A stretch of DNA of 64,000 nucleotides, from the NCBI RefSeq assembly GCF_988242995.1, contig NZ_OZ547043.1; one strand, written 5' to 3'. Below, one piece after another: positions 21,593-50,077 of this stretch; positions within the stretch are counted from its first letter, which is position 1, and each line of letters begins with the position of its first letter. The position numbers and the translations under genes were made by a program. The notes beneath the pieces are model-generated. The model had not been told where the DNA came from. It made no database searches and saw only the letters and a program-made list of their open reading frames with translations.

Positions 21593-24484
<2,892 letters not shown>

Positions 24485-24488
<4 letters not shown>

Positions 24489-25372
24489 GCTTCCTCGGTT
24501 GTCGTCTGTTGTTGCGGATTTTTCACCGCACGCACATGCTCTTCCAGTTCAATAAACGACGGACGTTCGCTGGAATAGAGCGTTTTGCGACCAAACTCAA
24601 CGGCGATAGGCGGTGCGTAACCGTTCAGATTAGAAAGCAGAGTGACTTTGACGCACTGCATCATTTTGCTGGTTTCGGCGCTTTTCTGACGTAAAACAGT
24701 CGCTAATGGGGAAATAAATCCGTAAGCCAATAAAATGCCGAGGAAAGTCCCCACCATCGCATGTGCGATAAGCGCACCCAGCTCGGCGGCAGGACGATCG
24801 GCTGAACCTAACGCGTGAACGACCCCCATTACAGCCGCAACAATACCAAACGCCGGAAGTGAGTCCCCGACCAGCGCCAGACTGTTCGCCGGGACTTCTG
24901 CCTCGCTTTCGTGCGTCTCAATCTCTTCATCCATCAGGGCTTCGATTTCGAAGGTGTTCATGTGACCGCTGATAATCAGGCGCAGATAATCGACGATAAA
25001 ATCAAGCATGACGCTATCCGCGAGGATGCGTGGGTAGCTGGCGAAGATCTCGCTCTCACGGGGATTTTCAATATCACGTTCCAGCGAAAACATCCCCATC
25101 TGCCGCGATTTTGCCATCAACCGATAAAGCAGAGCCAGCAGATCCATATACATTGCTTTGGTGTATTTGGAGCGACGAAACAGCAACGGCAGCGCCTTCA
25201 GCGTGCCTTTAATCGCTTTGCCATTATTGCCGACGATAAACGACCCAATCCCTGCACCGGCAATAATCACCAGTTCAGCGGGTTGATAGAGTGCTCCAAG
25301 GCTTCCACCGGTCATCAAATAACCGCCGAAAACTGTACCGAGAACAACCAGGTAACCTAATAAGATAAGCAC
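24485..25372 (-). CDS. motA: flagellar stator protein MotA (295 aa)
   Basis: ORF track; four TM segments. Confidence 0.96.
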
Positions 25373-25440
25373 GACATCATCCTTCCACTGTTGACCATGA
25401 CAGGATGTTCAGTCGTCAGGCGTTAACGCGCGATTGGGGC

Positions 25441-25535
25441 AAAAAAAAGCAGCGGTACGTCGTTACCGCTGCTGGAATGTTGCGCCTCACCGTATCAGTT
25501 AAACAGCCTGTACTCTCTGTTCATCCAGCAGTTGT
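25441..25535 (-). ncRNA. motR: MotR-like sigma28-dependent sRNA region (motA 5' leader ending at the flhC-proximal terminator)
   Basis: sigma28-like promoter inside flhC 3' end (25543-25568) followed about 95 nt downstream by intrinsic terminator (stem gcagcggtaacgacgtaccgctgc plus U8, 25441-25472); fits published MotR description; ends approximate. Confidence 0.45.
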
Positions 25536-26077
25536 GGGATAATATCGGCAGGATTCTGGGAAAGTTTACGTCTTTTTACTGCCCTGGATGGCGGTTGACA
25601 TAAGCTGCAGGCAAAGCTGCCAACAGGCTGGTGAGCGTGGGTAATAAAATTCCCGCCGCAGCAGTTGCAGCTGGAAAGTTGCAGTAATCCACTTTCAACA
25701 AACCGCACCAATGTCCAGGCACGAGTTAATGCCAGCAGTGGTCCTTCTTCTGCTTGTGGGCACTGTTCAAGGTATAAACGGTAGGCTTTGATCACCGCAT
25801 CGACGCCATTACACAAACCGGTTTTCAGTAAAAACTGCCATGCATTACAGAACATCGAAGCATGAACGTTTTGTTCCCAGGTCATAAACCAGTCGGTTGA
25901 GAATGGCAGCATGCCTTTCGGCGGTGGGCTTCCGCGCAGTTCTTTATAAAGTTTTATCAGGCGTCCGCGACTTAACTGTGTTTCGCTTTCCAGCATCTGC
26001 AAACGAGCGCCCAGGGTGATCAATTCCATTGCCAGCTGAATATCCCGCGCTTCCTGAACAATGCTTTTTTCACTCAT
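25499..26077 (-). CDS. flhC: flagellar master regulator subunit FlhC (192 aa)
   Basis: ORF track; C-terminal Cys cluster (CNCCGG...CSLCQPP). Confidence 0.96.
25543..25568 (-). promoter_or_regulatory. sigma28-type promoter within flhC coding sequence (motA/MotR promoter)
   Basis: minus strand TAAACTTT-N11-GCCGATAT, one mismatch in each half versus TAAAGTTT-N11-GCCGATAA. Confidence 0.6.
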
Positions 26078-26079
26078 GA

Positions 26080-26430
26080 TCAGGCCCTTTTCTTGCGCAG
26101 CGCTTCTTCAGGCTGATTAACATCATTCAGCAAGCGTGTTGAGAGCATGATGCCGGTATGAATTTGCTGGAGATCGTCAACGCGGGAATCTTGCGTCAAC
26201 TGAGTAATCGTCTGGTGGCTGTCAAAACGGAAGTGACAAACCAGCTGATTGGTTTCTGCCAGCTTAACCATTTGCGGAAGAGTCAGTGCCGCTAATGTTG
26301 TCGCCATTTCTTCATTTATGCCGAGACGAAACATAGCGGACGCTTTGTCCTGAACAATCAGACGCTGTGCAAGTAGTAAATATGACAAGTTGATGTCATA
26401 AATGTGTTTCAGCAACTCGGAGGTATGCAT
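26080..26430 (-). CDS. flhD: flagellar master regulator subunit FlhD (116 aa)
   Basis: ORF track 26080..26439; start set at [11 protein letters not shown]. Confidence 0.95.
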
Positions 26431-26690
26431 TATTCCCACCCAGAATAACCAACTTTATTTTTATGCGGTTTCACCGCACCCTGTGATGTCGCCGGGAAGC
26501 CCCGGTAAAAATAATTAGCATTAGAATAGTTGCGATAAGCTGCAATAAGCAGAGCCACCTTTTTGGTTTAATAAGTCCTTACAAATAGAAGGGGGTCTTT
26601 ACACTTATCTAAGATTTTTCCTAAATCGACGCAACTGTACTCGTCACTACACGCACATACAACGGAGGGGGGCTGCGATTTTCAATAATG

Positions 26691-26706
26691 TGTGATGCAG
26701 ATCACA
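26691..26706. promoter_or_regulatory. CRP binding site of the flhDC promoter
   Basis: TGTGAtgcagaTCACA palindrome centred about 70 bp upstream of the position expected for the flhDC transcription start (about 200 nt upstream of flhD ATG). Confidence 0.75.
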
Positions 26707-27208
26707 CAAAACACTCAATTACTTAACATAAATGTATAAGTCATACTTTTGTTTTGGGTGTATTTCAATCTGTTAAAAAGTTTTTCGCTACGCTAGCAAG
26801 CAAAAATGAAACAGGAATAATCGAAATGGGATGTTGCGCACAGTTAAAATAACTCACCGTAAATAATCATCTGCTATAAATAATCACTTTCATGCAATAC
26901 CAGATAAGCTATTTTTAAACAGACACTTACCGCACAACAAACTAATTAAATACAAAGAAAGGCAACAATCAACATAATGTTAATGAAATGTTTTACATAT
27001 ATTAACCACTTGTTTAATGCGGAGAATCAGTACACTATTTTCTTATAATTACATTTGAAATTATATGATCACCGGGAGTGATTGATTAATTGTCTTTACT
27101 AATAATCAGACTAATATTTACCTGTTTGACCGAGTTGGGATTGCGTCGTTTCTCCATTAGGAGTAAAGCTTTAATGTCACCTGAAGTTCACAGAATAAGG
27201 AACAGGTT

Positions 27209-27637
27209 ATGAGCTATAGCAATATTCTTGTCGCTGTTGCGGTTACACCGGAAAGTCAGCAACTGCTGGCAAAAGCGGTATCTATCGCCAGGCCAGTAAA
27301 GGGACACATCAGTTTAATTACTCTCGCTTCCGACCCGGAAATGTACAATCAATTAGCCGCGCCGATGCTTGAAGATTTACGCAGCGTGATGCAAGAAGAA
27401 ACGCAAAGCTTTCTTGATAAGTTAATTCAGGATGCGGGGTATCCCGTTGACAAGACGTTTATTGCCTACGGTGAGTTAAGCGAACATATTCTGGAAGTAT
27501 GTCACAAACATCATTTCGATTTGGTGATTTGCGGTAATCACAATCACAGTTTCTTTTCGCGAGCATCCTGCTCGGCGAAAAGAGTGATTGCCTCAAGTGA
27601 GGTCGATGTGCTGTTAGTTCCACTTACGGGTGATTAA
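27209..27637 (+). CDS. uspC: universal stress protein UspC (YecG, 142 aa)
   Basis: ORF track; Usp-family fold signature. Confidence 0.92.
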   Translation: MSYSNILVAVAVTPESQQLLAKAVSIARPVKGHISLITLASDPEMYNQLAAPMLEDLRSVMQEETQSFLDKLIQDAGYPVDKTFIAYGELSEHILEVCHKHHFDLVICGNHNHSFFSRASCSAKRVIASSEVDVLLVPLTGD

Positions 27638-27643
27638 CCGCTC

Positions 27644-30996
<3,353 letters not shown>

Positions 30997-35328: not shown

Positions 35329-35415
35329 TTATCGGAACATATTGCCTGGCGGTACGTCTTTGAACGTCTTGCAATAGTTATTGAACATACTTTTCAGGAT
35401 TTTGCGCAGTTTCAT
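35329..35415 (-). CDS. azuC: small membrane-associated protein AzuC (28 aa; mRNA also known as sRNA IsrB)
   Basis: hand translation of minus strand gives MKLRKILKSMFNNYCKTFKDVPPGNMFR-stop; not in the ORF track because it is below the length cutoff. Confidence 0.85.
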   Translation of the reverse strand: MKLRKILKSMFNNYCKTFKDVPPGNMFR

Positions 35416-35677
35416 CGCGGCACTCCGACCATTTGTTATACAGGTGTTATTGTCTTTGCGCTTATAATATGACAACCATCACAAAAATCAATCTTTATGT
35501 GATACAAATCACATAAATACTCCTTTAATGTTATAAAAATGATAATCAAAAAACAGCCCCCCTATTTCTGACACCTACAGATGGCAAGAAATAGCGCCTG
35601 CCAGGCGTCTTTTCCGGCCATTGTCGCAGCGCTGTAACGCGTAAAATAGTGCTTTCTCTTACTCTTCTGGCTGGACC

Positions 35678-48524: not shown

Positions 48525-49244
48525 TTATAACTTACCCAGTTTAGTGCGTAACCGTTTAATAGCCTGGCTGTGTAACTGACTGACCCGCGATTCCCCGACC
48601 TCCAGCACCGCGCCAATCTCTTTGAGATTCAGCTCTTCCTGGTAATAGAGGGTTAATACCAGTTTTTCGCGCTCCGGCAACGTTTCGATGGCTTCCATCA
48701 CCCGCTGACGCAGATTACTGTCCAGCAGTTGTTGTAGCGGGTTTTCTCGCTGATGATCATCAGTAACCAGTTCGATGCTATCGCCGTGCTCTTCGCGCCA
48801 CTCATCGTAGGAGAAGAGCTGGCTGTTATTGGTGTCGAGCAACATTTGGCGATAATCGGCAATATCGATCCCTAAACGTTCCGCTACCTCAGTTTCCGTG
48901 GCGTTGCGGCCAAGTTCCTGCTCCAGTTGCCCTATTGCCTGTGCCACTTCACGCGCGTTGCGTCGCACGCTGCGCGGCACCCAGTCACGGCTGCGAAGTT
49001 CATCCAGCATAGCGCCACGGATACGCTGCACTGCGTAAGTTGTAAATGCCGTTCCTTGTAGGGCGTCATAGCGTTCGACGGCATTAAGTAACCCAATGCC
49101 GCCCGCCTGTAGCAGATCGTCAAGTTCCACGCTCGCGGGCAGTCGAACCTGCAGGCGCAATGCTTCGTGACGCACCAGCGGGACATAACGCTGCCATAGC
49201 GAGTGTTTATCCATTACACCTTCAGCGGTATAGAGTGAATTCAC
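48525..49244 (-). CDS. fliA: flagellar sigma factor FliA (sigma28, 239 aa)
   Basis: ORF track; sigma70-family regions 2 and 4 recognisable. Confidence 0.96.
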   Translation of the reverse strand: MNSLYTAEGVMDKHSLWQRYVPLVRHEALRLQVRLPASVELDDLLQAGGIGLLNAVERYDALQGTAFTTYAVQRIRGAMLDELRSRDWVPRSVRRNAREVAQAIGQLEQELGRNATETEVAERLGIDIADYRQMLLDTNNSQLFSYDEWREEHGDSIELVTDDHQRENPLQQLLDSNLRQRVMEAIETLPEREKLVLTLYYQEELNLKEIGAVLEVGESRVSQLHSQAIKRLRTKLGKL

Positions 49245-49371
49245 GATAAACAGCCCTGCGTTATATGAGTTATCGGCATGATTATCCGTTTCTGCAGGGT
49301 TTTTAATCGGACGATTAGTGGGTGAAATGAGGGGTTATTTGGGGGTTACCGGTAAATTGCGGGCAGAATAA

Positions 49372-50077
49372 ATATCCTCCGGCATAGCCGGAGGTTTTTC
49401 AAATGCGCCTGTAAGGCTCTGTTACCAGCCGCGCCCTAACAGGCGCATACGATCTGACATTTGCATTCAACTTCGTTACTTACGGCCCGTAAACGGGCTG
49501 CCCGGATATGGAATCGATAACTGCTCCCCCATTTTATCCTCTTCAAGCTGGTGCTTTATGTAGTCACGTATCTTCGCCGTGTTCTTACCCACCGTATCGA
49601 CATAGTACCCTCGGCACCAGAACTCCCTGTTTCTGTATTTGAATTTCAAATCCCCAAACTGCTCGTAAAGCATCAGACTGCTTTTCCCTTTCAGATATCC
49701 CATAAAGCCGGATACGCTCATTTTGGGTGGGATTTCCACAAGCATATGGATATGATCTGCGCAGCACTCTGCTTCCAGAATCCGTACGCTTTTCCACTCA
49801 CACAGCTTTCTCAAAATACTGCCTATCGCCCTACGCTTCTCTCCGTAAAACGCCAGTCTTCGGTATTTCGGCGCAAAAACTATGTGATATTTACAGTTCC
49901 AGCGGGTGTGCGCTAAGCTCTTTTCGTCCCCCATTGGGACCCCCTTTTGATTTCTTGTTTGACACTTGCAGTTGCCAGACCGCAAGGTGTTTTAACAAAT
50001 CAAAAGGGGTTTTAATAACTGGCTCAAAGCTGAAAGCTTTCCGGAACCCCCAGCCTAGCTGGGGGTTTTCTGTGCAC
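49372..50077 (-). mobile_element. IS200-family insertion sequence (IS200/IS605 group) in the fliA-fliC intergenic region
   Basis: intact 152-aa tnpA matching IS200 TnpA as recalled; terminal hairpin aacccccagcctagctgggggtt at 50045-50067; ends estimated from the canonical ~707-bp element, about +/-30 bp uncertain. Confidence 0.8.
49476..49934 (-). CDS. tnpA: IS200 transposase TnpA (HUH/Y1 ssDNA transposase, 152 aa)
   Basis: ORF track 49476..49985; start at MGDEKSLAHTRWNCKYHIVFAPKYRR; HxH motif (DHIHMLVEIPP) and C-terminal catalytic Tyr region. Confidence 0.92.
   Translation of the reverse strand: MGDEKSLAHTRWNCKYHIVFAPKYRRLAFYGEKRRAIGSILRKLCEWKSVRILEAECCADHIHMLVEIPPKMSVSGFMGYLKGKSSLMLYEQFGDLKFKYRNREFWCRGYYVDTVGKNTAKIRDYIKHQLEEDKMGEQLSIPYPGSPFTGRK

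Follow-up and report, generated by a model that had tools for sequence, protein, structure and literature searches.

The DNA between flhD and uspC in this strain is, we believe with a high degree of confidence, the native and uninterrupted divergent flhDC-uspC control region of a commensal-type Escherichia coli. Within the window, by which we mean the whole stretch of 64,000 nucleotides that was analysed, the E. coli flhD-uspC spacer corresponds exactly to positions 26431-27208. The original prediction described an AT-rich region of roughly 780 bp between the two genes, and this proved to be a precise intergenic spacer of 778 bp with a G+C content of 35.2%, against 50.4% for the whole window; distal to the CRP site the G+C content is 31.4% (about 31% over 26700-27208). 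The genes flhC, flhD and uspC (Table 1) are arranged as is usual in E. coli, in agreement with the annotations of ATCC 8739 and MG1655, with motA and flhC lying beyond flhD and otsA beyond uspC. The FlhC and FlhD proteins are identical to their MG1655 counterparts, UspC differs from that of MG1655 by a single amino acid (Q62 against H), and flhD, flhC and fliA are all intact in the window. The anatomy of the locus, its orthology, the absence of insertion sequence (IS) elements and the allele frequencies given below were all read directly from the DNA. The spacer thus shows a textbook locus in its ordinary state, which has been characterised before, and its biology is known. None of the observations spoke against this account. 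As the master flagellar operon has its species-typical wiring, flhDC control in this strain needs no special explanation. The value of the region is as a baseline, since it shows where K-12 has departed from the species norm, through IS1 and IS5 insertions and a one-base CRP defect, and points to the one unusual flagellar feature of the strain, an IS200 element upstream of fliA.

Table 1. Positions of the features discussed in the text (window coordinates; positions relative to the flhD start at 26627).
Feature	Position	Strand	Details
flhC CDS	25499-26077	-	192 aa; open reading frame; annotated flhC in collinear genomes
flhD CDS	26080-26430	-	116 aa; ATG at 26430-26428
AsflhD-homologous region (antisense RNA of K-12)	26409-26627	+	By homology; MG1655 asflhD at 1,978,176-1,978,395
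flhD 5' untranslated leader	26431-26627	-	197 nt; start by homology with MG1655
RcsAB-box match TAGGAAAAATCTTA	26610-26623	-	+5 to +18; invariant between E. coli and Salmonella
flhDC core sigma-70 promoter	26634-26662	-	-35 TTGTAT at 26657-26662, 17-bp spacer, -10 TACAGT at 26634-26639
cAMP-CRP site (predicted) TGTGATGCAGATCACA; TGTGATCTGCATCACA in flhD orientation	26691-26706		Consensus match, centred at -71.5
AT-rich distal spacer	26707-27208		By composition; putative upstream silencing/regulatory region of flhDC and uspC promoter
IS5 target of W3110, TTAA	26723-26726		-96 to -99; intact, single copy in window
IS1H target of MG1655, CATAAATG	26727-26734		-100 to -107; intact, single copy in window
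IS1 target of NCTC11121, GGGATGTTG	26828-26836		-201 to -209; single copy in window
uspC CDS	27209-27637	+	142 aa; ATG at 27209
IS200 open reading frame	49476-49934	-	Pfam Y1_Tnp PF01797, E=7e-37

No trace of a mobile element was found in the spacer. In the list of open reading frames for 26431-27208 the longest is 42 aa, and none of the five spacer frames of 30-42 aa matched a transposase in Pfam at E<=1; a sub-threshold match of one of these frames to HPIH (E=0.058) was dismissed as noise. Terminal inverted repeats are absent from the spacer, in which the repeat search returned one 13-nt inverted pair and one 13-nt direct pair, each of 85% identity and each at chance level. The claim that the region holds neither a transposase frame nor IS terminal repeats therefore withstood the frame, Pfam and repeat searches, and the kind of database search by which the original prediction proposed that it might be overturned, carried out here with Pfam and plasmid blastn, brought up no IS repeats or transposase fragments. 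In the latter case, a sensitive blastn search of an IS-rich set of 72,556 plasmid records matched no IS family to the spacer and returned 13 records, of which 12 are from E. coli or Salmonella and, where inspected, carry the flhD-uspC spacer itself, the thirteenth being oddly labelled as Bacillus. In complete E. coli genomes the 778-bp spacer was matched in 5,421 of 5,426, at a median of one place per genome and a maximum of two. As a positive control, the end of the window's own IS200 matched up to 35 places per genome. Neither of the marks of an IS-activated flhDC allele, namely an IS with terminal repeats and a transposase, and a duplicated target, is present in the window.

An IS element might nevertheless have inserted here in the past and been excised, leaving a scar in the form of a target duplication or a short remnant, such that the spacer would not be truly unmodified. 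We regard this as extremely improbable. The targets used in K-12 and in NCTC11121 are each single-copy in the window, and the IS-rich plasmid records gave no IS match. At least 58 independent complete genomes, that of ATCC 8739 (NC_010468.1) among them, hold the same 778 bp at 100% identity and without interruption, and the spacer is 778-780 bp long in all of the lineages aligned. Moreover, the window matches the inferred ancestral phylogroup A/B1 sequence base for base. On the other side of the argument, the search for a scar in the spacer yielded no support, the only repeats being the two chance-level 13-nt pairs.

Alignment with MG1655 and W3110, which the original prediction put forward as a check, gave a simple result: the MG1655 region is the window spacer plus a 768-bp IS1H with an 8-bp target duplication, and the W3110 region, as read from its junctions, is the window spacer plus a 1,195-bp IS5 with a duplication of TTAA. 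K-12 MG1655 and W3110 otherwise have the same promoter, leader, CRP position, RcsAB box and AsflhD region as the window, at a DNA identity of 98.5-99.1% after removal of the IS. These stocks have, in addition, an inserted element, IS1H at -100 to -107 or IS5 at -96 to -99, neither of which is in the window. Insertions of IS1, IS3 and IS5 upstream of flhDC are a classic route to hypermotility in K-12 (PMC1174868, PMC5493358, PMC8652233, PMC9478672), and on this point the original prediction, which named IS1 and IS5, is backed by the open literature (PMC1174868, PMC5493358, PMC8652233). Some K-12 stocks, such as BW25113 and the MG1655 isolate 'B', are IS-free and weakly motile (PMC5493358, PMC1174868), and IS-less K-12 stocks gain motility through IS insertion in the upstream region of flhDC (PMC1174868; PMC5493358; PMC8652233). 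Hence the contrast that the original prediction draws with K-12 at flhDC holds with respect to particular motile stocks and not with respect to K-12 as such, many stocks of which are IS-free.

Insertion at this locus extends beyond the familiar laboratory stocks. NCTC11121 has a spacer that is otherwise 100% identical to the window, plus an IS1, and therefore IS capture at the locus has also occurred outside the MG1655 and W3110 stocks. Similarly, NCTC9966 gave a two-piece 100% match with an annotated IS1 transposase. For the frequency of such events in the 5,426 complete E. coli genomes, each half of the spacer was searched on its own, which kept any match from bridging a 768-bp insert. The proximal half was found as a single piece in 5,262 genomes and split into two places in 147, the corresponding figures for the distal half being 5,370 and 44, and overall the spacer is split or truncated in about 190 of the 5,426 genomes (about 3.5%). 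With about 96% of complete E. coli genomes free of an interruption here, the IS-free state is the species norm. The interrupted minority probably takes in many laboratory K-12 derivatives. The 'unmodified configuration' of the original prediction therefore stands in so far as every base of the spacer lines up with IS-free genomes, and falls as a distinguishing trait, since about 96% of E. coli share it.

E. coli X14-3 (NZ_CP084055.1) is among the closest genomes to the window: over 37 kb the two are 99.96-99.97% identical, and their spacers do not differ. Its annotation gives flhD (L003 1-230) as a pseudogene interrupted by an internal stop, and it seems that this near relative has lost the master regulator naturally.

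The flhDC transcription start of the window was placed by homology. In MG1655 the flhD CDS ends at 1,978,197 and the 5' untranslated region and AsflhD end at 1,978,395, which corresponds to window position 26627; owing to a 1-bp deletion in the window, the leader that runs from this predicted start would be 197 nt long against 198 nt in K-12. As a cross-check, the TTAA target of the W3110 IS5 lands at -96 to -99 in this numbering, as published for motile K-12 (PMC1174868). Relative to a start at 26627 the -10 element lies at -12 to -7 and the -35 element at -35 to -30. Together these elements agree with the consensus at 7 of 12 positions, which is why a generic sigma-70 scan missed the flhDC promoter and which fits an activator-dependent promoter. 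The same scan proposed a single candidate at 26821-26850 on the plus strand, which is unremarkable given the 3.8 expected by chance and was disregarded.

Upstream of the promoter lies an exact match to the CRP core consensus TGTGA-N6-TCACA, as the original prediction had claimed when it placed a perfect-arm site about 70 bp upstream of the start. Its centre, 26698.5, is at -71.5 with respect to the homology-mapped start at 26627, and this is one of the spacings of class I activation (-61.5, -71.5, -82.5 or -92.5), which place the site on one and the same helix face. We take -71.5 to be the position of the characterised class I CRP site at K-12 flhDC, which is reportedly centred there. Short palindromes do arise by chance, CRP binding at this place is predicted from sequence, and the motif might be a fortuitous palindrome in AT-rich DNA with no regulatory role. 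We consider this very unlikely, if somewhat less so than an excision scar. TGTGA-N6-TCACA occurs twice in the 64 kb, counting both strands, against an expectation of 0.11. In addition, 15 of the 16 positions are shared with the orthologous site of MG1655, in which the -35 element, the spacer and the -10 element are identical to those of the window, and both arms are kept in Salmonella despite an overall identity of about 70%. The perfect site is also present in at least 82% of E. coli genomes, and its spacing from the start is that of a class I site. On this comparison of sequences, we regard the palindrome as orthologous to the K-12 site.

The single position at which the two sites differ is informative, as it is K-12 that departs from the consensus. 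At the position equivalent to 26691, MG1655 (NC_000913.3, L001 position 1960) has a C in place of the T of the window, such that the arm reads CGTGA, or TCACG in flhD orientation. The description of the site as having perfect arms accordingly fits the window and not the sequence of K-12. A 60-mer around the CRP site was found exactly in 2,962 of the 5,426 genomes in the window version and in 399 in the K-12 version, and an exact 30-mer holding the whole perfect 16-mer was found in 4,467 (82%), a figure that is a lower bound for perfect arms. When ten lineages were aligned, only MG1655 and one other strain lacked intact arms, and the Salmonella site, TGTGATCTACATCACA, also has perfect arms. Since the majority of E. 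coli, and Salmonella, carry T at 26691, the window allele is ancestral and that of K-12 a derived minority. Furthermore, strain WCHEC035148 shares the leader substitutions of K-12 and yet keeps the T, which suggests that the T-to-C change in K-12 is recent.

That the non-consensus CRP arm belongs to the K-12 reference, and not to the strain of the window, is a mildly interesting by-product of this work. We put forward, tentatively and as something short of an even chance, that the lineage-restricted change from TCACA to TCACG in K-12 is a notable allele that may weaken activation by CRP and so help to explain motility in that lineage. If this is the case, it would help to explain the poor motility of IS-less K-12 and also the strong selection in laboratory K-12 for IS elements just upstream of the CRP site, and conclusions drawn from K-12 about a 'cryptic' flhDC would not be transferable to strains such as this one. 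A search of the open literature found no report of a polymorphism in the flhDC CRP site; as subscription papers were outside its scope, the polymorphism may already be known.

The remaining differences between the window and K-12 lie mostly in the leader. Seven leader positions differ (six substitutions and the 1-bp deletion), all of them downstream of the start, and they include T/C at 26482, the deletion of an A at 26506, G/A at 26554, A/T at 26574 and GG/AT at 26591-26592; these differences from K-12 are common to many wild strains. K-12 also differs at three distal positions, and one difference lies at -218. The leader carries a sequence at +5 to +18 that we take to be the RcsAB box of flhDC, a site that has reportedly been described. 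It also has GGA motifs at +7 and +50, the latter adjoined by the A/T difference at 26574, and these are presumably consistent with CsrA sites, which the flhDC leader is said to contain. The region homologous to the antisense RNA AsflhD, which has been described in K-12 (PMC9600491), overlaps the leader, and the window is identical to K-12 over 26362-26481, which covers the AsflhD promoter and its start at about 26409 on the plus strand. A search of 24000-29000 against Rfam with permissive E-value thresholds returned nothing, the database having no family for AsflhD or for the flhD leader.

Comparison with other genomes shows how this architecture is conserved. ATCC 8739 (NC_010468.1) has all 778 bp of the spacer in common with the window; its flanking genes are the same and point the same way, and nothing is annotated between them. 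In Salmonella enterica the flhDC P1 promoter retains the perfect CRP arms, the -35 element, the first 20 or so nucleotides of the leader, comprising the RcsAB-box and CsrA region, and the 3' part of the leader, and its -10 element is one base apart from that of the window (TAGAGT against TACAGT). Across window positions 26433-26709, identity to Salmonella reaches only about 71% overall, and upstream of about 26709, just past the CRP site, no similarity was detectable by alignment and blastn. Salmonella uses several additional flhDC promoters. Among E. coli lineages the distal AT-rich spacer is likewise the most variable part, with identities of 92.8-100%.

Drawing on the K-12 and Salmonella literature for the transcription start, the binding of CRP and the roles of the repressors, we propose the following model for the locus. 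Transcription of flhDC would proceed leftward from a weak sigma-70 promoter with a start at about 26627. cAMP-CRP, bound at 26691-26706, would act as a class I activator by contacting the C-terminal domain of the alpha subunit of RNA polymerase. The AT-rich upstream DNA and the leader may carry repressive inputs that keep the operon low, such as those of H-NS, LrhA, OmpR, RcsAB (at +5 to +18) and others; indeed, H-NS, LrhA, OmpR, Fur, IHF, MatA, YjjQ and RcsAB have all been reported to bind the flhDC upstream region (PMC5493358). Once transcribed, the 197-nt leader would be the target of post-transcriptional control by CsrA, small RNAs and the antisense AsflhD. In K-12, flhDC expression rises when an IS has inserted upstream, at about -96 to -107 or farther away (PMC1174868; PMC8652233), and our own reading is that an IS just upstream of the CRP site would separate the promoter from the upstream repressive region. 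In the strain of the window the IS target sites are intact, and this route to activation has not been taken.

A native control region could still be a nearly silent one. By this account, expression of flhDC would be low and motility weak, as in IS-less K-12, for as long as no activating mutation had arisen, or else the strain's flagellar phenotype would be set by the IS200 upstream of fliA. We think this unlikely, although it has more in its favour than the alternatives discussed above. IS-less K-12 is weakly motile and gains motility by IS insertion (PMC1174868; PMC5493358; PMC8652233), the window has an IS200 125 bp upstream of the fliA start, and the flhD pseudogene of the very close relative X14-3 suggests that motility is dispensable in the lineage. 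However, the window keeps the consensus in the CRP arm where K-12 does not, and it has eight further differences from K-12 upstream of flhD (seven in the leader and the one at -218); therefore the K-12 phenotype is not simply transferable to this strain. Furthermore, flhD, flhC and fliA are intact, and many natural isolates with IS-free spacers are motile.

Distinct from the flhDC spacer, and more unusual than it, is the IS200 near fliA. Its presence, which the original prediction had mentioned in passing, is upheld: compared with the nearest genomes, the fliC-fliA spacer has an extra 709 bp at about 49369-50077, and the open reading frame of this insert matches a Y1 transposase in Pfam (Table 1). 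It conforms to the IS200/IS605 family, whose members are about 700 bp long, encode a Y1 (HUH) transposase and have no long terminal inverted repeats. The element adjoins the terminator hairpin of fliC and lies 125 bp upstream of the GTG start codon of fliA at 49244. The junction of this IS200 between fliC and fliA did not occur in any of the 5,426 complete E. coli genomes; the nearest genomes have no IS200 at this position and, unlike the strain of the window, neither has ATCC 8739. Given its location, the element could affect FlhDC-dependent transcription of fliA or read-through from fliC.

Two further observations were made in passing. The PLSDB record HM037272.1, labelled as a plasmid of Bacillus thuringiensis CT-43, contains at 68388-68877 a stretch of 490 bp that is 99.2% identical to window positions 26719-27208; this piece of the E. 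coli uspC upstream region is probably the result of contamination or of a chimeric assembly. Finally, the only perfect TGTGA-N6-TCACA in the window besides the flhDC site is TGTGATACAAATCACA at 35498-35513, in the interval between yecR and azuC (about 35329-35415, minus strand); its location, some 83 bp upstream of where azuC starts, would presumably fit the known control of azuC by CRP.
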